A DNA stretch of 59,290 nt, from the IMG/VR virus record IMGVR_UViG_3300025789_000042, positions 1-59,290 of that record; one strand, written 5' to 3'. The translations under genes were made by a program, and so were the position numbers. The notes below the pieces were generated by a model that was not told the DNA's origin, did not search any database, and saw only the letters and a list, made by a program, of their open reading frames with translations. This document shows positions 1-56,018 of the stretch, piece by piece. How positions within the stretch are numbered: position 1 is the first letter of the stretch; the number at the start of each line of letters is the position of its first letter. This DNA is from a virus. Taxonomy: Duplodnaviria; Caudoviricetes.

Positions 1-175
1 GCAACTATCGTGCCAGAGTGGCAGCGTGGCCAACTTGGCATGATTCTTGCTAGGGCAACTATCGTGCCAGAGTGGCAGCGTGGCACGCTTCTTGCTTGGC
101 CTAGCAAGTTCTATGCCAGCGGCTGCGGGCTGGCAGGTTGGCACGATTCTTGCATGGCAAGCAAGTTCTATGCCA
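1..175. promoter_or_regulatory. Array of 7 sigma-54 (RpoN) -24/-12 consensus boxes, both strands
   Basis: TGGCAY-N5-TTGC on + at 36-50, 81-95, 139-153 and on - at 1-15, 55-69, 104-118, 161-175; 30-bp exact direct repeat at 1-30/55-84. Confidence 0.8.
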
Positions 176-570
176 GAATGCTTAGGAGGGTGGCCCTCTT
201 TTTTCCGGCCATACCCCCAAAAAGGATTCCAATGGTCCAGCGGGCGGGGGGCCCACTCAGACAGCAAGTTCGTCAAGCCTCCTGTTTACCAAGAAACCCG
301 GACCCTCAAATTTTTTTATAAAATGTCGTCAAGATGACAATGTACTACTTTAGTTAATCGCGGTGTCTGGCTGTTCTAACATTGGCCATGTTAGTGAACC
401 GGTTTGATGTTACGTCGGTGGTTTTTGACAAGTACCGACGCTTTTCTCTAATTAGAACTAAAGTTAATCTGCGCCATGGGTTCGCCTTGTTCCAGTGGGG
501 GGAAATCATAGGTATCCCGACGAAAACAGTATCGGATGTTCAAGCGTTTTAACTCTATCTTTATTTATTT

Positions 571-786: not shown

Positions 787-825
787 GGGCGATAAGTCGG
801 GGATAAATGTGTTGTTGTATGCAGG
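787..825 (+). promoter_or_regulatory. Putative phage late promoter, copy 1
   Basis: GGGCGA-N14-ATGTGTTGTTGTATGCAGG, same spacing as six other copies; upstream of the TerL operon. Confidence 0.6.
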
Positions 826-850
826 AAGAGTGCAAATTTCAAGGATAACG

Positions 851-1237
851 ATGACTCAAAGAATGAACCCGCAAACCAACCAGCCTTTTAAGCGGGGTGA
901 TGAGCGCGAAGATGGCCGGTTGTTTTATAAGTACACCCGCAGACTGAAGGCGGACGGAACCTATGTTGAGATTTGGCTTGTCCCCGAATCACTTGATCGT
1001 GTCCGCAACAAGGATAAGTCGCTACGGATGGGCAAGTACGTCCGAACTTCTGACCGACTACCTAAAGGGTGGTTGAACATGATTACTGACCCGGAAGAGT
1101 TGGCTTTGTGCCGAAAAGCGTATCGTCAAATGCGCCGCCAACCAGTCACGTTGGAGAAACTCCATGAGACGTTAGGTGATTTCCCCTTGATGGTCAGGTT
1201 GCTGACCCCCTTCACCAGCGATTTCAATGGGGTTTGA
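851..1237 (+). CDS. Hypothetical basic protein
   Basis: ORF 809..1237; ATG 851 preceded by AAGGA; Arg/Lys-rich. Confidence 0.7.
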   Translation: MTQRMNPQTNQPFKRGDEREDGRLFYKYTRRLKADGTYVEIWLVPESLDRVRNKDKSLRMGKYVRTSDRLPKGWLNMITDPEELALCRKAYRQMRRQPVTLEKLHETLGDFPLMVRLLTPFTSDFNGV

Positions 1238-2114
1238 CGCGCGCATCCCGGTGCCCACCACAAAGGGCTGGCTGCCGGCGGGAATGATTCAGGTTGGTGA
1301 TGAGGTGTTCGGGCAGAATGGCCGGCCAGTCAAGGTCACGTTGGTTCAGAAGTACACGCCGCGCAAGTGCTTCAAGGTCTGGATGAAAGATGGCCTGACC
1401 TTGGTGGTAGACGGGCGCGCAGGGATTCCGGCGTACTCCTACATTGAGTTCACCTCGTTGCGGCTGTGGAGCGCCAGCAGGATATTGCCAAGAAAGGGCA
1501 CGGTCACACCCAAAAACGCGGAGAGCATCATGCGCAGAGAGGCGGGCCGCTGCCGCATCCCTGTGTGTCAACCGATCCGCCCCATAGAGGCTGCGCTGCC
1601 AGTTGACCCGTATGTGTTCGGCCAATGGATCATGGAGCCAAGGGAGCGGCGGCGCATGGCCCAGACGACGATCAGCCGCGAACTCATGGAGCGGTATGCG
1701 ATTGTGCCCAACCGAATACCGGAAGAATACCTGTTTGCGTCCTTTGAGCAGCGGCTGGCGTTGCTGAGGGGCATACTGAGCAAGAAGCCCAAATGTTTCA
1801 ACAAAACAACAACCCTGTTCTCTCTGGCCGTGATGGATCAGACCTTGGCCCGGCAGATTCAGAATCTTGTGGAGTCGTTCGGGATGCGCAGTTCCATCGT
1901 CTACAACAAACACAGCTTCTATTTTCGTGTCAGCTTCAGGAGCTTTATGAGACTGATCGAAGATCAGCTGCCACCAAACAAGCCACTGGACCTAGAGTAC
2001 CGGCGCGTCCGGCGCGTGGAAGATGCGCGGGTCAGGGAGTGCGTGTACTTGAAGACTGAAGACCCAGCAAATGCAATCCTCGTCAGCGAGGGATTTATCA
2101 CTTTGATACCATGA
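1227..2114 (+). CDS. Free-standing degenerate intein (Hint + LAGLIDADG-like) protein
   Basis: Block A-like IPVPTTKGW..IQVGDEVFGQNGRPVKV; LPVDPYVFGQW and IPEEYLFASFEQRLALLRG (LAGLIDADG-like); block F/G-like C-terminus without His-Asn. Confidence 0.8.
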   Translation: MGFDARIPVPTTKGWLPAGMIQVGDEVFGQNGRPVKVTLVQKYTPRKCFKVWMKDGLTLVVDGRAGIPAYSYIEFTSLRLWSASRILPRKGTVTPKNAESIMRREAGRCRIPVCQPIRPIEAALPVDPYVFGQWIMEPRERRRMAQTTISRELMERYAIVPNRIPEEYLFASFEQRLALLRGILSKKPKCFNKTTTLFSLAVMDQTLARQIQNLVESFGMRSSIVYNKHSFYFRVSFRSFMRLIEDQLPPNKPLDLEYRRVRRVEDARVRECVYLKTEDPANAILVSEGFITLIP

Positions 2115-3550
2115 CACCAGCACAAGAGAAGATTCTGGCCGACTTTGCGGCCAAAAACAAAGGTTGGCCAAAAGAGGCGCTTGACTTCGCGCTGTGGAAG
2201 GTGCGTTGGCACCTGACCGCCCTCCCTCACCAACGAGAGCCCGAGGACAACGAGTACGATACGTTCTTGCTGTTGGCCGGGCGCGGATCGGGCAAGACCC
2301 ACACGGCATCGAACTGGATCGGCCTGCGCGCGGCGGAGTTTGACAAAACGCGCTGGTTGGTGACAGCGCCAACCTCGAACGACATTCGGGCCACTTGCTT
2401 TGAAGGGGACTCGGGGTTGCTCAACATCGTCCCGCAGTCGCTGATCAAGGACTACAACAAATCGCTGTTTGAGCTTACGTTGAAGAATGGGTCAATGATC
2501 CGTGGCATCCCGGCCTCCGAGCCGGAGCGCTTCCGGGGTACACAGTGGCACGGCATGTGGGCGGACGAGTTGTGTGCGTTCGAGTACATTGACGATGCGT
2601 ATGACCAGATTCAGTTCACGCTCCGTCTGCGCGATCCCCGCATCGAGCGGGTGCAGTCGATCATCACCACCACACCCAAACCCTTGGAGCTGATCACCGA
2701 CTTGAATGAGGGCAAGGTGGGTGGCGATGTGTACGTCTCCCGTGCCAGCTCTTATGACAACCGCAGCAACTTGTCCGCCACGTTCTTCAAACAACTGGAG
2801 CAGTATGAGGGCACCGACCTTGGCAAGCAGGAGATTTACGGTGAAATTCTGGACCCAGAGAACGCGGGTATTGTCAAGCGCAAGTGGTTCAAGATGTGGC
2901 CGGCCAACCGACCAACCCCCACGTTGGAGTACGTGATTGCCTCGTATGACCCCGCCGCGTCGGAGAAAACGCACAATGACCCGACAGCCTGTGTGGTGTT
3001 TGGCATCTTTGAGCGTGAGGACGCCGGCACCTGCGCGATGATCCTTGACGTATGGGACGAGCATTTGTCCTATCCTGAGTTGCGCCGCAAGGTGCGCGAT
3101 GACTACAAGGAAGTCGTTTACGGTGCGGACAACACATTCGCCAAAGGCAAAAAGGCGGACTTGATCTTGCTGGAAGACAAGAGCGCTGGCATCTCGCTGA
3201 TCCAAGAACTCCAAGCTGGCGGTATGCCGGTGCGCTCGTACAACCCGGGCAAAGCGGACAAGGTGCAGCGCATGAACATTGTGGCGCCCTTGATTGCCAA
3301 GGGCAAGGTGTACATCCCCGAAGACCCGGAGAAGCCGGGCGAGGTGGCGCCTTGGGCCAAACGGTTTATCCGCCAAGTGTGTTCGTTCCCAGAGGCCAAA
3401 GGCCACGATGACTACGTGGACGCCTTGAGCCAAGGGTTGCGCATCCTGCGCGACTCAGGCTGGCTCCAGCTCGACCCCCTACCCGACAGGGACTTCCGCC
3501 ACGCAGACGAGATTGCATCCCGCAAAGTCTACAACCCATACGCAGCATGA
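2111..3550 (+). CDS. terL: Terminase large subunit
   Basis: Walker A GRGSGKT, Walker B MWADE, TTTP coupling motif, RNase H-like C-terminus (SYDPA, HDDYVDA). Confidence 0.95.
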   Translation: MTPAQEKILADFAAKNKGWPKEALDFALWKVRWHLTALPHQREPEDNEYDTFLLLAGRGSGKTHTASNWIGLRAAEFDKTRWLVTAPTSNDIRATCFEGDSGLLNIVPQSLIKDYNKSLFELTLKNGSMIRGIPASEPERFRGTQWHGMWADELCAFEYIDDAYDQIQFTLRLRDPRIERVQSIITTTPKPLELITDLNEGKVGGDVYVSRASSYDNRSNLSATFFKQLEQYEGTDLGKQEIYGEILDPENAGIVKRKWFKMWPANRPTPTLEYVIASYDPAASEKTHNDPTACVVFGIFEREDAGTCAMILDVWDEHLSYPELRRKVRDDYKEVVYGADNTFAKGKKADLILLEDKSAGISLIQELQAGGMPVRSYNPGKADKVQRMNIVAPLIAKGKVYIPEDPEKPGEVAPWAKRFIRQVCSFPEAKGHDDYVDALSQGLRILRDSGWLQLDPLPDRDFRHADEIASRKVYNPYAA

Positions 3551-6280: not shown

Positions 6281-9075
6281 GTCAAAATCCCCTACTCCCA
6301 ATCCAAGCAGGCGGTAATTTGTCCGCTTTGTCGCATGTTGAGAGCGACAATGAGGACTTGGACAACCAAAAAGAGGTCGAGGCAATCGCTGATGCGCTTG
6401 ATTTGGACACAGAAGACGTCGAGCAAGAGGTAATCGAGCTTGAAGACGGTTCGGTTGTCGTCAACTTCACCGAAACTCAAAAACCGTCAGAAAACCCTGA
6501 TTTTTACGTCAACTTGGCCGAAGAATTGGATGAGGGTGTTCTGGACAACATCGCATTTGAGTATTTGGACCTGATCGAGATCGACCGTGAGTCGCGCAAA
6601 AAGCGTGATGAGCAGTATGAAGAGGGTATTCGCCGCACCGGCATGGGCAATGACGCCCCCGGTGGTGCAAGCTTCCAAGGTGCGTCCAAGGTGGTTCACC
6701 CAATCATGGCGGAAGCCTGCGTGGACTTTGCGGCAAATGCAAGCAAAGAGCTGCTGCCGGCGGACGGCTTGGTCAAGAGCAAAATCAAAGGCGACGTGGA
6801 CACTAGCAAGCTGGCGTCTGCTGATCGCAAGACCAACTTCTTGAACTGGCAGCTGACAGAGCAAATCGAGGAATACCGCGATGAGATGGAGCAGTTGTTC
6901 ACTCAGTTGCCCTTGGGCGGCAGCCAATATTTGAAGTGGCGATTTGACCGCGACTTGAATCGTCCGGCGTCTGAGTGGATTCCGATCGACAACATTCTGT
7001 TGCCTTTCTCCTCGACCAACTTCTACTCCTCAGCGCGCATCACTGAACAGCAAGACATCACTCAGGATACGTATGAGCAGCGCGTCGAGATGGGCGACTA
7101 CCGTGACGTGGAGCTGTTCAAGGCTGAGTTGGACATTGAGCATGTCACCCGCTCAGAGAAGGCCAACAACAAAATCGAAGGCCGGGAAGAACCAAGCAAG
7201 AACGTGGACGGCCTGCGCCGTGTGTACGAAGTCACATGCTACCTGCGTTTGGAAGATGATTCTGTTTCCAAGGGTGCCCGCGCACCATACATCTTGACCA
7301 TTGACGAGCTGTCTGGCAAGGTGCTGGCGCTGTACCGCAACTGGGAGTCCGGCGACACCCGCATGCGCAAGCTGGACTGGATTGTCGAGTACAAATTCAT
7401 CCCTTGGCGCGGCGCTTACGCGATCGGCATGCCTCACTTGATCGGTGGCCTCTCAGCCGCTTTGACTGGCAGCTTGCGCGCGCTGATGGATTCGGCGCAC
7501 ATCAACAACAGCCAGACCTTGTTGAAACTCAAGGGTGGCCGCATCGGCGGGCAGACGGATCGCATCGAGCCAACCCAAGTGGTTGAGATCGAAGGCAGCC
7601 CCGGCGTGGATGACGTGCGCAAGTTGGCCATGCCAATGCCGTTCAACCAACCGTCAAACGTGTTGTACAATCTGCTGGGTTGGTTGACTGACGCAGCCAA
7701 AGGCGTAGTCAAGACAAGCGAAGGCCGGATTGCCGAAACCAACGCCAATGCGCCAGTGGGCACCACCCAAGCGTTGATCGAACAAGGCTCGAAGGTCTTC
7801 TCCAGCATCCACGCGCGCATGCACCGCAGCCAAGCCAAGAGCTTGCAGATTCTGTCGCGCTTGAACTACTGGTACTTGGACGATATGGACAACCAGTCCG
7901 GCGAAGAGATCGAGGTTGCCGACTTTGCGGACAACAGCGACATTAGCCCGGTCAGCGACCCCAACATCTTCAGCGAAACTCAGCGCATCAGCCAAGCACA
8001 GACTGTCATGCAGCTGGCCGGCCAAGCGCCTCAGCTGTACGACATGCGTGAAGTCCACTTGCGCATCCTGCGCCAGTTGAAGGTGCCAGACATTGAGAAG
8101 GTGTTACCAAATCCGCAAGGCGTCAACGAAAGCAACCCAGCGCTGGAGAACGTGCAGATGACCATGGGCACCCATGCCGCTGCATTCCCAGACCAAGATC
8201 ACCTTGCGCACATCAAGGTTCACTTGGCGTACATGGCCGACCCAGCATACGGCGGCAGCCCGCTGATCGCGCCTCAAGTGACACCGCTGATGATGGAACA
8301 CATCAAGCAGCATTTGACACTGCACTATCTGTCATCCATGCGCGCGTATGTGGCCCACGCCGCCGGCGGCGAAGATGCGTTCAAGCTGAATGAAGAACGT
8401 CCGCTCGACAAGGACGCCCAAGAAGCGTTGGCCATGGCCGCGCAGCTGGTCAACCAAGACGCGCAGAAGACATTCGGGGGCATCAACCCAATCATCGGCC
8501 AACTGGTCCAGCAAATGCAGCAAGCCCAGCAAGCCCAGATGCAGCAAGCCGCAGCAAGCGATCCTGCCGCGCAGGCCCTGTTGCAAACACAGATGGCTGA
8601 AACCAAGCGCAAGTCCGAAGAGGCTGTGGCCAACCAACAGCTTGAACGTGAGCGCATGCAGGCCGAGTACGCGGACAAGGTGCGCGACTTGGAAGCCAAA
8701 CTGGCCGAAGCACAAGCGAAGATGGGTCTGGAGCAACGCCTCGCAACGAACGACAACGCCTCGAAGATTGCGATTGCCGACATCAACAACGCTTCACGCG
8801 AACGTGTGGCAGCCATCTCAGCCAAAGCGCAGCTCGACGGCACACAGATGGAGCAACAGCATGCCCAAGAGCTAAATGCCTTGCAGGCAGAGCAAGAGGC
8901 ATACGCAGACCTTCGCCAACACGGCTTGCAAGAAGTACAGAACGAGCGAGACCGCGCGCACCAAGCAAGTATGGCCGCGCAACAACAAATGACACAACAG
9001 CAAACCCAGCAAGCGCAACAAGCGCACGAGGCCAGCATGGCCACACAACCACAACCAACCCCGACAGGAGAATGA
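6277..9075 (+). CDS. Portal protein with long Gln-rich C-terminal coiled coil
   Basis: 932 aa; position after terL; VVHPIMAEACVDF and YKFIPWRGAYAIG motifs; helical barrel-like tail as in P22-type portals. Confidence 0.85.
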   Translation: MSQNPLLPIQAGGNLSALSHVESDNEDLDNQKEVEAIADALDLDTEDVEQEVIELEDGSVVVNFTETQKPSENPDFYVNLAEELDEGVLDNIAFEYLDLIEIDRESRKKRDEQYEEGIRRTGMGNDAPGGASFQGASKVVHPIMAEACVDFAANASKELLPADGLVKSKIKGDVDTSKLASADRKTNFLNWQLTEQIEEYRDEMEQLFTQLPLGGSQYLKWRFDRDLNRPASEWIPIDNILLPFSSTNFYSSARITEQQDITQDTYEQRVEMGDYRDVELFKAELDIEHVTRSEKANNKIEGREEPSKNVDGLRRVYEVTCYLRLEDDSVSKGARAPYILTIDELSGKVLALYRNWESGDTRMRKLDWIVEYKFIPWRGAYAIGMPHLIGGLSAALTGSLRALMDSAHINNSQTLLKLKGGRIGGQTDRIEPTQVVEIEGSPGVDDVRKLAMPMPFNQPSNVLYNLLGWLTDAAKGVVKTSEGRIAETNANAPVGTTQALIEQGSKVFSSIHARMHRSQAKSLQILSRLNYWYLDDMDNQSGEEIEVADFADNSDISPVSDPNIFSETQRISQAQTVMQLAGQAPQLYDMREVHLRILRQLKVPDIEKVLPNPQGVNESNPALENVQMTMGTHAAAFPDQDHLAHIKVHLAYMADPAYGGSPLIAPQVTPLMMEHIKQHLTLHYLSSMRAYVAHAAGGEDAFKLNEERPLDKDAQEALAMAAQLVNQDAQKTFGGINPIIGQLVQQMQQAQQAQMQQAAASDPAAQALLQTQMAETKRKSEEAVANQQLERERMQAEYADKVRDLEAKLAEAQAKMGLEQRLATNDNASKIAIADINNASRERVAAISAKAQLDGTQMEQQHAQELNALQAEQEAYADLRQHGLQEVQNERDRAHQASMAAQQQMTQQQTQQAQQAHEASMATQPQPTPTGE

Positions 9076-9335: not shown

Positions 9336-9527
9336 ATGAAAGACCCGGTTTACGAATCATTATTCGCCATCAGGGAAGAACTTACTCGAATGAATGAGAG
9401 CTTGCTTGAAGGCGTAGACAGCTGGGACAAATACAACCAGCTTGTCGGAAAAGCCCGAGGTTTGAAAGAAGCCTTGGATATCATCAATAATGTCCTGCAT
9501 GAGGACGAGGAAAAAGATGTCAACTGA
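9336..9527 (+). CDS. Small hypothetical protein
   Basis: GGAGG RBS; YNQLVGKARGL helix of the kind seen in pre-GroES genes of such phages. Confidence 0.7.
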   Translation: MKDPVYESLFAIREELTRMNESLLEGVDSWDKYNQLVGKARGLKEALDIINNVLHEDEEKDVN

Positions 9528-9948
9528 GAGCAAATATCAAGTTGATGGTCGGAGTGAAGCCGACTGTTTCCCGGAAGTTGATCCGGGGTTTCAACCACAA
9601 GGCAACCGAATTTTAGTTCAGTTGCGCAAAGCCAAAGACGTTTCACAGGGCGGCATCATCTTAATCGGTGACACCAAAGCCACAGAGAAATGGAACGAGG
9701 TGATTGCCAAAGTCGTCAAGCATGGGCCTCTGGCCTACAAAGACATCAGCACCATGCAACCATGGCCTGAAGGTCCTTGGGCAAATCCCGGCGATTTGGT
9801 TCGAGTCATCAAGTACGGTGGCGACCGCTGGGCGGTTCCACACGGCGACGGTGAAGTGGTGTTTATCGTTTTGCAAGATCGTGAAGTGATCGGCAAAATT
9901 GATAGTTTTGAAGTAGCACGGACAATGTTCCCTGCATTTGTTGAATAA
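9517..9948 (+). CDS. groES: Co-chaperonin GroES (Cpn10)-like protein
   Basis: PQGNRILV..SQGGIIL..AKVVKHGP..GDLV..KYGG; start at ATG 9517 after GAGG. Confidence 0.85.
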   Translation: MSTESKYQVDGRSEADCFPEVDPGFQPQGNRILVQLRKAKDVSQGGIILIGDTKATEKWNEVIAKVVKHGPLAYKDISTMQPWPEGPWANPGDLVRVIKYGGDRWAVPHGDGEVVFIVLQDREVIGKIDSFEVARTMFPAFVE

Positions 9949-43826: not shown

Positions 43827-44222
43827 TCAGCCAGCCTTTTTGAGACTTGCGATCAAGTCATTCACCGCACTGCCAAAGTCCACTGTGACTTCGGCCTTGA
43901 GATCAACCTTCTGGGTTCGATCTTCGCGGTAGGTGTCCCCAAACTGGCCTCGAAGGGCAATCTCAGCCAAACGGGAGTTGAAAGCTTTGTTGCTCAAATT
44001 GGCCAAAAGCTCACGCTCCCAATACGCTTGACTGTGAACCAAAGCCATATCCAGTGCATCGGCAAACTCAGGGTGGTTCTTTTTGAACGTCTGCGCGGCG
44101 CCCGCGCTGATGCCCAACTCAGCCCAAATCATTTTTTGGGAGCTGCCCAGTTTGCCCAACTCGATCATGCGTTCGCACATCTCGGGCTTGAATACGTATT
44201 TGGTTTTTTTCTTTTCGGCCAT
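43827..44222 (-). CDS. terS: Putative terminase small subunit
   Basis: KYVFKPEMCERMIELGKLG..AELGIS HTH..HPEFADAL..SQAYWE pattern typical of TerS. Confidence 0.7.
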   Translation of the reverse strand: MAEKKKTKYVFKPEMCERMIELGKLGSSQKMIWAELGISAGAAQTFKKNHPEFADALDMALVHSQAYWERELLANLSNKAFNSRLAEIALRGQFGDTYREDRTQKVDLKAEVTVDFGSAVNDLIASLKKAG

Positions 44223-51754: not shown

Positions 51755-52653
51755 CAGAATAACTCTCGTTTGAGTTCTTTAATGCGCGCCGTCACATAAC
51801 CACTCAACAACTTGAAATTGATTGTTGGATTTTTGAATTCCTTCAAAATTTCCCACATTTCTTCCGTGATGATATCATAGTAGACCGTGTGCAGCAACCG
51901 AGGAATCATTTTGCTGTGCCACCCCTCACCCGTCTCGTTGATGATTTTGGCGTGAACCTTATCGACGAGATGTTGAGTCACAAACTTTTCAGCAATCCGA
52001 GCCTCAATGATGTCGCCAACGATTTCAGTCGCGCCCATTTCTTTGGTGTGGCGCTCTTTGAATTCATTGGTGACGATCTTTGCCCACACTGTACGACCGT
52101 ACTTATTTACAAAGTCGTAGTTTTTTATGACAACGCCCTCGCCAATACCATGGCCGTCTTTAATCAGCACCTTATTGAGTTCAATACTTTTGCTGAACAT
52201 CTCATGGCTGCCGTTTTTGATGGTTTGGATTGGAGCAAGGTAATCGATACCATGGTTGATTAAAGTGTTCACATAATCATCATACTCGTAAAACTCTCCT
52301 GTACGGCGGCTCACCACGTCAAAGACGTAGAACTTGCGCCATGCGTCATCACGGTACGTTTTGAGTGTGTGCGGCACAAGCCATTCGCCATACAAAATGG
52401 CATCAGGGCAGTTCTCAAAAAATGCTTTGTATCTCGGGTCTTCACGCATGTGCGCGTGAAAACCTGCGTTGTCTTCCTCTGAGCTGAGTTCTCGGTTGCG
52501 AGAACCCGCACAGAGAGTGCCGTAGTCGTCTCTCCATATTGAGGCGTTTGTGCCGTCAAGTTTAGGGAAAACGTAGCATGTGCCTATTTCAATTCCCTCA
52601 ACTTCAGCCGTGCCAAACTTCTCGACGTGCATGTACTTTTGAAAGCCGCTCAT
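51754..52653 (-). CDS. ATP-dependent RNA ligase (Rnl2-like)
   Basis: Motif I KLDGTN, YGEW, FDV, EGVVIK, WAK. Confidence 0.85.
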   Translation of the reverse strand: MSGFQKYMHVEKFGTAEVEGIEIGTCYVFPKLDGTNASIWRDDYGTLCAGSRNRELSSEEDNAGFHAHMREDPRYKAFFENCPDAILYGEWLVPHTLKTYRDDAWRKFYVFDVVSRRTGEFYEYDDYVNTLINHGIDYLAPIQTIKNGSHEMFSKSIELNKVLIKDGHGIGEGVVIKNYDFVNKYGRTVWAKIVTNEFKERHTKEMGATEIVGDIIEARIAEKFVTQHLVDKVHAKIINETGEGWHSKMIPRLLHTVYYDIITEEMWEILKEFKNPTINFKLLSGYVTARIKELKRELF

Positions 52654-54812: not shown

Positions 54813-56018
54813 TTAATTTCCTTTCACGCAGAGTACCTGCTTGAGTTGATGAACGACCTCAACGAGATCGGTTTGATTGGCCATCACTTGGTCAATGTCT
54901 TTGTAGCTGGCTGGGATTTCGTCAATGACTCCTTCGTCTTTGCGGCACTCGACTCCCATGGTCTGATCAATGAGATCAGTGAGGGAAAATCGGCGCTTGG
55001 CTTCTGCACGGGACATAGCCCGACCCGCGCCGTGCGAGCAAGAACAGTAAGCTTGAATGTCGCCGCGACCTCGTACAATGTAGCTTCTTTGGCCCATGCT
55101 TCCCGGAATAATTCCGAGATCACCAAGTCGCGCTCGAATAGCGCCCTTGCGTGTAACCCACATATTTCGTCCGAAGTGGTTTTCTTTTTCAACATAGTTG
55201 TGGTGGCAGTTGATTGCCTCCTGTGTGATGGTGAATGGCTTGGTGATCTCTTGGCGCAACGCCGCGATGACCTCTTGCATCATGATGCGTCGGTTCTCAA
55301 GCGCGTAGTTCTGCGCCCAACCCACAGCGGCCATGTAGTCATCAAAGTTCTCGGTGTCTTCGGGGAAGTACGCAAGGTTGTCGTCAGGCAGGGACACAAA
55401 AAACTTCTCCATGTCGCGCTTGGCCAGCCCGATGTAGTGCGTACCAATCATGTTGCCAATGCCGCGAGAGCCTGAGTGCAGCATGATCCACACATCTTGG
55501 TTCTCGTCAATGCAAATCTCAATGAAGTGGTTGCCACTGCCCAGCGTACCGAGTTGGCTTGCGGCCTTTTCGCGGAACTTCTGCATATTATTTTTATACA
55601 AAGGTTGCACCACTGAGTTCATAAATTCCGCATTTATAGGCGTAATCATTTCAAGTTCAACTTCGCGCATATGGTCATGCCCACCACCTACACCCAGTGG
55701 CACGCGCTTCTCGATCTCATCGCGCAGGGGTTTCAAGTTGTCAGGCAGGTCGCTGGCCTTCAATGACAGTCGCACCGCGTTCATGCCACAGCCAATGTCA
55801 ACACCCACAGCGGCGGGGATGACGGCCTTCTCGGTAGCGATCACAGTGCCCACGGTCGAGCCAATCCCTGCATGAACATCGGGCATACACGCTACCCCGT
55901 TTGATGCAATGAATGGCAGGCGCGATAGGTTCTTGAGTTGGGTCAAGGCGCTGGCCTCAACTTCGTCAGTCCAAATTTTGATTGGGCGTGCGCCTTGTTC
56001 TTGAATGACTTGTTTCAT
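54813..56018 (-). CDS. rtcB: RNA-splicing ligase RtcB
   Basis: MPDVHAG, VGVDIGCG, GSGNHF, HSGSRG, HHNY, IPGSMG, SCSHGAGR. Confidence 0.96.
   Translation of the reverse strand: MKQVIQEQGARPIKIWTDEVEASALTQLKNLSRLPFIASNGVACMPDVHAGIGSTVGTVIATEKAVIPAAVGVDIGCGMNAVRLSLKASDLPDNLKPLRDEIEKRVPLGVGGGHDHMREVELEMITPINAEFMNSVVQPLYKNNMQKFREKAASQLGTLGSGNHFIEICIDENQDVWIMLHSGSRGIGNMIGTHYIGLAKRDMEKFFVSLPDDNLAYFPEDTENFDDYMAAVGWAQNYALENRRIMMQEVIAALRQEITKPFTITQEAINCHHNYVEKENHFGRNMWVTRKGAIRARLGDLGIIPGSMGQRSYIVRGRGDIQAYCSCSHGAGRAMSRAEAKRRFSLTDLIDQTMGVECRKDEGVIDEIPASYKDIDQVMANQTDLVEVVHQLKQVLCVKGN

Follow-up and report, generated by a model that had tools for sequence, protein, structure and literature searches.

An Intein-derived Gene under Purifying Selection Adjoins and Co-diverges with the Large Terminase Gene in Uncultured Freshwater Phages

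RESULTS

An Intein-like Gene without Exteins Overlaps terL

The window (the whole 59,290-nucleotide stretch of viral DNA analyzed here) contains a 295-residue open reading frame, intL, which resembles an intein encoded as a gene of its own and whose stop codon overlaps the start of the large terminase gene terL. The features of this locus are as follows.

809..1237, plus strand: sporadic upstream ORF, 142 aa, overlapping the intL start by 11 nt
1227..2114 including the stop codon, plus strand: intL, free-standing intein-derived gene, 295 aa (assigned from ORF, fold and family)
1227..1607, plus strand: N-terminal Hint part of intL, residues 1-127, beginning Met-Gly
1410-1412, plus strand: block B Asp (D62) in the N-terminal Hint part
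1437..1562, plus strand: basic insert inside the Hint part, residues 71-112
1608..1961, plus strand: degenerate LAGLIDADG domain, residues 128-245
1635-1637, plus strand: E137 at the catalytic position of LAGLIDADG motif 1 (helix 128-136; register taken from embedded inteins)
1785-1787, plus strand: K187 replacing the acid of LAGLIDADG motif 2 (helix 173-185; from column counts)
1962..2111, plus strand: C-terminal Hint part, residues 246-295
2040-2042, plus strand: retained block F Cys, C272 (from column counts and the register of embedded inteins)
2111..2114, plus strand: ATGA, the intL stop overlapping the terL start (from the ORF coordinates)
2111..3550, plus strand: terL, large terminase, 479 aa (Pfam Terminase_6N and Terminase_6C; PHROG and NCBIfam matches)

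The intL frame is intact and starts with its own ATG, as the first-pass annotation of this DNA had reported. Its initiator Met stands one residue ahead of intein position 1 and its stop codon falls at the intein end, with no extra domain past the Hint C terminus. The terL gene of the window is complete and intein-free, with an intact Walker A motif. GC3 amounts to 0.73 in intL, 0.76 in terL, and 0.58 in the sporadic upstream ORF. Database entries for the intL family are labeled just "hypothetical protein." The gene is neither a chance ORF nor a sequencing artefact, because 259 free-standing homologues share the same boundaries. The initial concern that a sequencing error might hide a fusion with a neighboring gene can be set aside as well: the gene stands free in all 259 loci, and the recurrence of the same ORF boundaries there, with three overlap geometries, rules out an in-frame fusion disguised by a frameshift.

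The ORF upstream of intL is shared by L003 and L008 but by no other of the 46 core loci, and it lies outside the conserved unit. By eye, its N terminus resembles an HNH-like ORF (L290) found in the same slot elsewhere. One contig from run X19 diverges exactly before position 1226; in the same run, a short piece is all that covers about 671-1206, which does not argue for absence of this stretch. Contig ends just upstream of intL might suggest a physical genome end, but this reading was rejected, since breaks in the assembly at a long homopolymer explain them better. The contig ends in X9, X10, and X12 fall at 558-618, and in 7 of 23 core loci the sequence begins no more than 60 nt from such a homopolymer run.

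intL and terL Occur Together across a Large Phage Clade

Similarity searches returned 265 loci, 259 of which carry a free-standing intL, and terL lies downstream in every one of these 259, so that the synteny singled out for checking in the first-pass annotation holds throughout. The distance between the two genes is at most 15 nt in 248 of the 259 loci, the other 11 containing an insert of 300-700 nt, and 216 of 231 loci show an ORF overlap of 4, 7, or 10 nt. When the search was started from terL and the best 80 of 214 matches were inspected, intL was present at all 73 assessable loci (those with at least 300 nt of upstream sequence, 7 further loci being too short). The sporadic occurrence of homologues that had been named as an argument against a retained gene is thus not seen. 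Neither is the distribution that of a sporadic mobile (homing) element, because intL is found at 73 of 73 loci (best 80 of 214) and its distances track those of terL.

The homologues all stem from metagenomic viral contigs, many of them from similar freshwater samples, and the locus counts are therefore not fully independent; intL is carried by hundreds of related uncultured freshwater phages. Among the cultured phages in INPHARED, 349 records match intL, all below 60% identity, and no free-standing relative was recognized; the listed matches lie inside larger annotated genes and therefore represent embedded inteins. DNA similarity among cultured phages is limited to distant relatives, MW202545 and the Caulobacter phage RW group. 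We found no described free-standing or domesticated phage intein in the openly accessible literature, and a preprint on actinobacteriophage inteins deals with non-canonical endonuclease arrangements within inteins, not with free-standing inteins.

The Predicted intL Structure Is Intein-like over Nearly Its Full Length

We compared the predicted structure of intL (pLDDT 92.1, pTM 0.88) to experimental intein structures. The endonuclease-bearing intein TliVMA aligns over 274 residues with a Z-score of 21.9, and PI-SceI over 275 of 295 residues with a Z-score of 21.6 and an rmsd of 3.2; Foldseek likewise returns an intein match, with an E-value of 1e-10. Many inteins match the model at VIA Z-scores of 14-22 spanning residues 1-295, as is expected of a Hint fold. 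The class 3 DnaB inteins align with Z-scores of 18.3-18.5, rmsd values of 1.7-2.2, and 21-23% identity, and they are also the best PDB sequence matches to the family profile (E-value 3.5e-8), the HMM match to 6rix and 6bs8 covering residues 6-69. The Hint and LAGLIDADG architecture proposed in the first-pass annotation is thus borne out by a confident model that matches inteins nearly full-length at Z-scores of about 21-22.

Both LAGLIDADG helices (residues 128-136 and 173-185) are present in the model, and the second LAGLIDADG half is complete. The first half of the window subfamily is modeled without its β-hairpins and β-sheet, whereas a 330-aa relative is predicted to contain both halves. 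The initial description of a full intein architecture without exteins consequently applies to the missing exteins but appears too generous for the first LAGLIDADG half. The sole Pfam match of the protein is to LAGLIDADG_3 with an E-value of 0.12, compared with 1e-10 to 1e-19 for embedded relatives; NCBIfam yields no match, and no HNH family is matched in Pfam, PHROGs, or NCBIfam. The nearest embedded relatives of intL are class 3 inteins that interrupt terminases and helicases behind the Walker A Lys, and at least 4 of the 12 embedded relatives scanned are terminases. It is plausible from these insertion sites that intL descended from a TerL-type P-loop class 3 intein, and to that extent the earlier idea of an intein that left or split from TerL finds support. 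A fragment in the corresponding slot of Caulobacter phage RW may be an intein-bearing duplicate of the N-terminal part of terL, a form that would qualify as an intermediate.

Splicing Residues and Most Nuclease Residues Have Been Lost

We counted residues in the alignment columns of 256 family members. The residue following the initiator Met is Gly in the window protein, as noted initially, and mostly Ala (170 of 256) or Gly (81 of 256) in the family. In block B, D62 aligns with the Asp of class 3 inteins, whereas the His and Trp positions are occupied by Ala-65 and Ile-67; the reported loss of the block B His is thus correct for the window protein, and 89 of the 256 members have a His one column off this position. 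The Thr-His-Asn of block G has given way to Leu-Ile-Pro and the stop codon, with Leu-293 at the Thr position, and the terminal His-Asn, whose loss the first-pass annotation had already noted, is absent from the window protein and from every one of the 256 members. The block F Cys is retained in 226 of 256. From the class 3 WCT triplet, the window protein has thus lost the Trp and the Thr (Ile-67, Leu-293) and kept Cys-272. Judged by these residues, intL cannot splice, because it has no exteins and its block B His and Trp and its terminal His-Asn are gone. It is a descendant of class 3 inteins, not a working member.

The first-pass annotation had regarded both LAGLIDADG acids as missing. This holds for motif 2, where the catalytic position is Lys-187 in the window protein and Lys or Arg in 216 of 256 members, but not for motif 1, where Glu-137 of the window protein lines up with the Asp that embedded class 3 inteins have there. 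Across the family, the motif 1 position is acidic in just 66 of 256 members. As far as these columns indicate, most intL family members lack the residues required for DNA cleavage by the canonical two-acid LAGLIDADG mechanism. Some residual chemistry may be possible in the window protein, since Glu-137 (motif 1) and Cys-272 (block F) are retained.

intL Is under Purifying Selection and Co-diverges with terL

NG86 dN/dS ratios, calculated over 465 pairs, have a median of 0.122 for intL (interquartile range 0.094-0.151, maximum 0.271) and amount to 0.048 for terL; between the window and L003, the values are 0.082 for intL and 0.030 for terL. A near-identical strain differs by 10 SNPs, 8 of them synonymous, and by a single 3-nt insertion that preserves the frame. 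The ratio of about 0.12, far from the value near 1 that was suggested as the mark of a decaying relic, refutes that possibility. Compared over the same 42 genomes, TerL columns have a mean identity of 86% and intL columns one of 46%, the amino acid divergence of intL being three to four times that of TerL, and the distances of the two are correlated with a Mantel r of 0.79 that is reached in 0 of 2000 permutations. Length and termini are conserved across the family, its members are still intact after diverging to about 25-30% identity, and the Hint parts are conserved at least as well as the endonuclease part. These findings together show that intL is under purifying selection, fixed, and co-diverging with terL. 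Very probably, it is a domesticated, non-splicing intein derivative kept by selection. Having lost its splicing residues and most of its nuclease residues and yet being under purifying selection just upstream of terL, the gene thus appears to have been recruited for a new job.

intL Is Strongly Basic and Weakly Predicted to Contact TerL

The net charge of intL proteins has a median of +15 and ranges from +7 to +24; for the window protein, the pI is 10.0. The positive charge is concentrated in the Hint insert and in the LAGLIDADG halves. The insert (residues 71-112) has a median net charge of +7 in the family, is the least conserved and lowest-pLDDT segment, and may correspond roughly in position to the part of PI-SceI that recognizes DNA.

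Co-folding of intL with TerL, done with custom alignments, gave a score of 0.34 (best control, 0.01), which is a weak pass: of 80 solved complexes, 58 reach the mark of 0.34, as do 2 of 110 mismatched pairs, scores that reach the mark without exceeding 0.60 come from only 7 of the 80 solved complexes and from both passing mismatches, and unless there is a strong prior, a pass of this kind is wrong in more cases than it is right. At least 25% of contacts are shared between the runs, with a partner pLDDT of at least 78. The pass could reflect the exposure of the model to many terminase-embedded inteins. Since the intL stop codon overlaps the terL start, the two proteins are probably made together, presumably by termination-reinitiation coupling.

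A Candidate Small Terminase Is Encoded Elsewhere

One further gene bears on the terminase system of this phage.

43830..44222, minus strand: P0195, candidate small terminase, 131 aa, in the replication module (phrog_309, E-value 7.9e-9)

P0195 is conserved in all 5 related records tested, with identities of 46-69%. It has no match in Pfam, NCBIfam, or the PDB, and neither BLASTP nor profile comparison produced a usable match to the terS of MW202545. The initial statement that terS lies elsewhere is thus backed by a gene conserved in all five relatives, but the identity of this gene depends on a single PHROG match (phrog_309, E-value 7.9e-9). As a conserved candidate terS is located elsewhere, the phage may need no further specificity factor.

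DISCUSSION

We compared intL to known inteins and intein-derived proteins. Class 3 inteins combine a non-nucleophilic residue 1 with a Trp in block B, a Cys in block F, and a Thr in block G, and have been described in the P-loops of phage ATPases (PMC2807308). Like these inteins, intL has a Hint fold, a non-nucleophilic Ala or Gly as residue 1, and, in 226 of 256 members, the block F Cys; unlike them, it has no exteins and lacks the Trp and Thr of the WCT triplet, the block B His in the window protein, and the terminal His-Asn. Among intein residues, the block B His is conserved most strongly; the class 3 prototype is the mycobacteriophage Bethlehem DnaB intein, with 6bs8 and 6rix as solved examples. 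A further likeness concerns the Arth_1007 intein of Arthrobacter sp. FB24, which starts with Gly, has no block B His, and does not splice (PMC3196547, PMC2807308). There it is almost free of exteins, where intL has none (PMC3196547), and is presented as a single decayed copy without the block F Cys, judged to be a pseudogene (PMC3196547, PMC2807308). In contrast, intL forms a large family under purifying selection at a fixed position, with the Cys mostly kept.

Yeast HO and the WHO elements, like intL, are intein-derived and encoded as genes of their own; WHO elements adjoin a highly conserved gene, as intL does, and HO has been kept for a new purpose, as intL appears to have been (PMC7282813). 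HO and WHO are, however, active nucleases with an added zinc finger, whereas intL ends at the Hint C terminus and does not have the conserved acids; they occur in yeasts, and intL occurs in phages, where it is fixed rather than mobile. A parallel within phages is the HNH protein GP74 of HK97, a homing endonuclease-type protein that adjoins the terminase genes and is reported to stimulate cos cleavage (PMC9410871); intL is of the same general type, adjoins terL, and is proposed here to serve the terminase. The fold of GP74 is HNH and its stimulation of cos cleavage is reported, whereas intL combines Hint and LAGLIDADG folds with degenerate nuclease residues. WhiA resembles intL in having a LAGLIDADG scaffold without conserved catalytic acids and in its presumed DNA binding. 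WhiA carries a C-terminal HTH and is not known to have a Hint domain, whereas intL has a whole Hint domain and no HTH.

Several alternative explanations for intL have to be weighed. The gene could be a selfish free-standing homing element beside terL of the type represented by WHO elements, which are described as free-standing intein-like genes adjoining a highly conserved gene whose end they replace (PMC7282813). Such an element would cut the sensitive terL of co-infecting relatives and be copied in along with a resistant terL 5' end, and successive sweeps of new specificities would explain both the universal presence and the fast divergence of intL. Indeed, a divergence three to four times faster than that of TerL could fit an arms race, and some pairs differ by 0.10-0.15 in TerL yet by up to 0.72 in intL; residues 1-30 are the least conserved part of TerL (0.68 versus 0.76-0.96 in the other bins), the 5' neighborhood of terL is a hotspot for other endonuclease-like ORFs, and the window protein retains Glu-137. 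Against a homing element speak the canonical acids, which are replaced by Lys or Arg at motif 2 in 216 of 256 members and retained at motif 1 in only 66, and the DNA-binding saddle, half of which the window subfamily has apparently lost according to the model. There is, moreover, no presence/absence polymorphism at 73 of 73 loci (best 80 of 214 terL matches) and no pseudogene array or decayed copy in the 259 loci, dN/dS is low throughout and does not exceed 0.271 in any of 465 pairs, and intL distances follow those of terL overall (r 0.79). We therefore regard a homing element as quite unlikely. That intL is a functionless, decaying intein remnant or an annotation artefact is hardly credible and already contradicted by our observations. 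It is true that the splicing residues and most nuclease residues are gone, and a comparable inactive class 3-like intein with a Gly start and exteins totaling 66 aa has been judged a pseudogene (PMC3196547), but 259 intact free-standing copies, a dN/dS of about 0.12, conserved length and termini, confident structure models, and an ancient family intact at about 25-30% identity all speak against decay.

LAGLIDADG folds have been reused as regulators, WhiA being an example, and this precedent raises the possibility that intL is a nuclease-dead DNA-binding regulator apart from packaging. Its target would be the divergent, repeat-rich control region upstream, where it could, for instance, turn early genes off. 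The basic, nuclease-degenerate character of the family would suit such a role, as would its location: intL is the first conserved gene of the rightward structural (late) operon and adjoins the non-coding region at 1-808, with direct repeats of 16-30 nt at 1-180, and divergent early genes. We consider a regulator unlikely, as the overlap with the terL start, kept in 216 of 231 loci, better fits a protein needed together with TerL, the weak co-fold pass points the same way, intL contains no HTH or other added regulatory domain, and no binding motif has been linked to the protein. Small terminases typically evolve fast and are strongly positively charged, and both traits are found in intL, whose gene lies where terS classically would, directly upstream of terL, with an overlap in 216 of 231 loci; in MW202545 and Caulobacter phage RW, the nearest annotated relatives, the terS in that slot has no homologue in the window. 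It is nevertheless improbable that intL is the actual small terminase, an intein-derived protein that has fully replaced canonical TerS. P0195 matches the small terminase family phrog_309 (E-value 7.9e-9) and is conserved in 5 of 5 relatives, and the intL model is intein-like throughout, a predicted monomeric fold without the N-terminal HTH and ring-forming oligomerization core of known TerS proteins.

The explanation that we favor overall, with slightly less than even confidence, is that intL is an exapted intein that now helps the terminase as an accessory which binds DNA and reads its sequence. It descends from a class 3 (P-loop type) phage intein, has a complete Hint domain and an inserted degenerate LAGLIDADG domain, and now stands as a gene of its own, passed on jointly with terL across a large clade of uncultured freshwater phages. 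Phage DNA may be bound by the LAGLIDADG saddle and the Hint insert, both basic, and the protein may contact TerL, adding specificity for a packaging site or cutting site. We infer DNA binding, TerL contact, and a role in packaging, and taken by itself, the packaging-accessory role, to which synteny, gene overlap, charge, and the weak co-fold score point, is possible but somewhat doubtful. A more far-reaching version, which we think rather unlikely, makes intL an unrecognized terminase subunit derived from a dead intein, whose Hint domain docks on TerL in trans while saddle and insert read the site; the P-loop of TerL would then be the former extein of the Hint domain. Such a subunit would provide this large phage clade with a rapidly changing specificity module, in co-evolution with the DNA that it targets.

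Inteins are usually treated as purely selfish, the textbook domesticated intein being yeast HO. In intL, a whole intein including its splicing domain is kept as an independent gene under purifying selection across a large phage clade. With more than 250 natural variants, the family is also a source of stable Hint-LAGLIDADG scaffolds that do not splice and would allow for a direct test of what a non-splicing Hint domain can do. If the packaging role is true, an intein-derived specificity factor would be added to the known parts of the viral packaging motor, and intL would be a second case, following the HNH proteins, in which a terminase has recruited a homing endonuclease fold.

A conserved intein-derived gene upstream of terL

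The window represents a phage-like genome of 59,290 bp (52% G+C), and this phage was detected in 20 or more runs from freshwater or ponds. We analyzed intL, a gene for a free-standing intein-derived protein, in its genomic context.

Features of the window around intL and overall gene arrangement
~0.8 to 36 kb, + strand: structural and lysis genes
809..1237, + strand: 142-aa ORF upstream of intL, overlapping the intL start by 11 nt
1227..2114, + strand: intL, ORF of 295 aa
2111..3550, + strand: terL, complete gene for the large terminase (Terminase_6N and Terminase_6C domains)
36 to 59 kb, - strand: T7-like replication genes

Among the conserved genes of the structural operon, intL comes first, and its TGA overlaps the ATG of terL in an ATGA junction. 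Domain searches of terL revealed no intein, and no small terminase gene (terS) is found beside intL in the gene neighborhood. Upstream of intL, a non-coding region contains direct repeats of 16-30 nt and a long homopolymer; divergent early genes are also located upstream. The window also encodes an RNA ligase (51757-52653, -), an RtcB-type tRNA-splicing ligase (54816-56018, -) and a GroES-like co-chaperonin (9490-9945, +); the two ligases may form an RNA repair pair.

Word-indexed and exhaustive protein searches returned 44 full-length clusters of 42-99% identity and, two fragments aside, 289-310 aa. All 44 start with Met-Gly/Ala and end at the Hint C-terminus, and a wider set of 311-337-aa proteins shares these termini. 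Four viral-contig scans yielded 265 loci, 259 with free-standing ORFs and the remaining 6 with inteins embedded in larger proteins. terL lies directly downstream of the free-standing ORF in 259/259 cases, either overlapping it or within 15 nt (248/259) or behind a 300-700-nt insert (11/259). The start geometry of terL is variable: the intL stop and terL start overlap by 4, 7 or 10 nt in 216 of the 231 loci with both genes complete. Because the 265 loci had been picked by similarity to the intL protein, we repeated the search from TerL, and found intL in 73/73 loci having at least 300 nt upstream (among the best 80 of 214 matches; the 7 others were too short). The inserts between intL and terL carry a small ORF of 118-179 aa (6864-7220, 1663-2040 and 2056-2595 in loci L012, L083 and L290, respectively, and 8 further loci). 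The encoded products are basic, with at least one appearing HNH-like by eye; the inserts are sporadic, whereas intL is fixed.

Fold and ancestry of intL

Pfam gives only a marginal LAGLIDADG_3 match in the intL protein (E 0.12), and its first 140 residues hit PHROG profiles of intein-containing terminases (phrog_15, E 1.1e-13). In cultured phages, 349 records match intL by tblastn; the 40 matches listed share 24-27% identity and sit within larger annotated genes such as terminases, helicases and exonucleases. An AlphaFold2 model calculated from a 29-sequence alignment (pLDDT 92.1, pTM 0.88) aligns with endonuclease-bearing inteins across nearly its entire length, including TliVMA (Z 21.9, 274 residues aligned) and PI-SceI (Z 21.6, 275 residues, rmsd 3.2). 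Class 3 DnaB mini-inteins align with Z 18.3-18.5, rmsd 1.7-2.2 and 21-23% identity, and class 3 DnaB inteins are the top PDB sequence matches to the family profile (E 3.5e-8). The closest embedded relatives in a 1.8-billion-protein library are class 3 inteins inserted in ATPases immediately behind the Walker A Lys, and terminases account for at least 4 of the 12 scanned; the same insertion site and host range are described for class 3 inteins (PMC2807308). The first LAGLIDADG half consists of helices only in the window model; both alpha-beta halves are present in the model of a 330-aa relative (pLDDT 94.1).

In Caulobacter phage RW (locus L002), RW_GP097c (2445-3113) is found between terS and terL; this 222-aa protein is paralogous to the N-terminal ATPase part of TerL. 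It shares 29% identity with window terL (E 7e-22) and occupies the slot held by intL in the window clade. intL may derive from an intein that sat in the P-loop of a duplicated, RW_GP097c-like TerL N-terminus and outlived its decaying exteins.

In the nearest annotated relatives the intL slot holds terS genes, for which the window has no homologue. A candidate small terminase, P0195 (131 aa; 43830-44222, -), is encoded within the replication module. It hits phrog_309, a small-terminase family (E 7.9e-9), and is kept in 5/5 related records at 46-69% identity; Pfam, NCBIfam and PDB provided no further support. If P0195 truly is a terS product, its location is unusual.

Splicing and nuclease residues

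An alignment of 256 distinct family members was set against six embedded class 3 inteins.

Intein and LAGLIDADG positions in the window protein and in the family
Residue 1: window Gly; family Ala 170/256, Gly 81/256
Block B Asp: window D62; kept in 254/256
Block B His position: window A65; His one column off in 89/256
Block B Trp position: window I67; lost in the family
Block F Cys: window C272; kept in 226/256
Block G Thr-His-Asn: window Leu-Ile-Pro then stop; His-Asn end in 0/256
LAGLIDADG motif 1 catalytic position: window E137; acidic in 66/256
LAGLIDADG motif 2 catalytic position: window K187; Lys or Arg in 216/256

The first-pass annotation had reported the motif 1 acid as absent from the window protein, wrongly, as E137 aligns with the catalytic Asp of embedded inteins; family-wide this acid is not conserved. 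The intL protein is thus unable to splice, and the family as a whole does not maintain the canonical two-acid nuclease site.

Selection and inheritance

The median dN/dS of intL is 0.122 (IQR 0.094-0.151, maximum 0.271) versus 0.048 for terL (Nei-Gojobori, 465 pairs); between the window and its closest relative the values are 0.082 and 0.030. In a near-identical strain from another run, 8/10 intL SNPs are synonymous and 2 conservative, and the single indel is in frame. Mean column identity in the same 42 genomes is 86% for TerL and 46% for intL, and family members have diverged down to about 25-30% identity. TerL residues 1-30 (window 2111-2200) form the least conserved TerL stretch, with a mean top-residue frequency of 0.68 versus 0.76-0.96 elsewhere (42 genomes). 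The intL and TerL distance matrices correlate despite some outliers (Pearson 0.79, 0/2000 permutations as high), and Hint segments are conserved at least as well as LAGLIDADG segments. Third-position G+C is 0.73 in intL, 0.76 in terL and 0.58 in the sporadic upstream ORF. Relic and artefact readings are thus rejected by dN/dS, SNP pattern, co-divergence, conservation and codon G+C, and these sequence comparisons also speak against an element that is repeatedly gained and lost.

The upstream region

The 142-aa ORF (809-1237, +) is sporadic, occurring in 2/46 core-family loci (L003 and L008; tblastn). By eye, its N-terminus resembles that of the 179-aa ORF inserted between intL and terL in L290, which has an HNH/endonuclease VII-like C-terminus. 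A contig from another sequencing run (X19) agrees with the window from 1226 on and diverges upstream. The 142-aa ORF probably represents an endonuclease-type mobile gene, either intact or in remnant form.

A non-coding 31-nt poly(A) run is located at 575-605. In 21/24 core-family loci with enough flank, a homopolymer of A or T spanning 12 nt or more (median 27 nt) is located ~120 nt upstream of intL, and contigs from other runs break there. Window 1-180 contains direct repeats (30 nt x2, 16 nt x3, 17 nt x2; spacing 45-58 nt). The first 84-134 nt have ~3x the neighboring depth in two other runs, with a loose end at 55, which suggests more repeat copies than assembled. These repeats may serve as iterons or binding sites; at the same place, related phages carry other repeats, as judged from repeated peptide strings.

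Function and evolutionary placement of intL

We conclude with high confidence that intL is a free-standing, non-splicing intein derivative, fixed beside terL and long under purifying selection. Yeast HO and the related WHO elements provide a precedent for domesticated free-standing inteins (PMC7282813). The main rival explanation follows the WHO elements and regards intL as a still-selfish element beside a conserved gene. The fast divergence of intL and the variable TerL N-terminus fit this model, but the catalytic acids are lost, polymorphism and pseudogene arrays are absent, and dN/dS is uniformly low. Alternatively, intL may be a regulator.

Proteins of the family are strongly basic (net charge: median +15, range +7 to +24; window intL pI 10.0), with charge concentrated in the variable Hint insert (residues 71-112) and the LAGLIDADG halves, a composition compatible with DNA binding. 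Co-folding of TerL and intL, each given as a 42-row alignment, scored 0.34 (runs 0.34, 0.34, 0.44) versus 0.01 for the best of 3 controls. The calibration is only rough with custom alignments, and the model may 'remember' terminase-embedded inteins. The calibrated mark was reached by 58/80 solved complexes and 2/110 mismatched pairs; at 0.60 or under were 7 of those 80 complexes plus both mismatches that passed. At least 25% of contacts agree between runs, and partner pLDDT is at least 78. The co-fold model thus lends weak support to a TerL-intL contact.

The family appears in the searched sources as 'hypothetical protein' only, and our literature searches found no published account of phage inteins that are free-standing or domesticated. 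The closest item described (PMC3196547) is one inactive class 3-like intein flanked by 66 aa of exteins, which was judged to be a pseudogene, whereas the intL family comprises many free-standing copies without exteins. HK97 GP74 sets a precedent for a terminase recruiting a homing-endonuclease-type protein (PMC9410871). We place intL among domesticated homing-element proteins; it would be produced together with TerL, bind DNA and serve the terminase.
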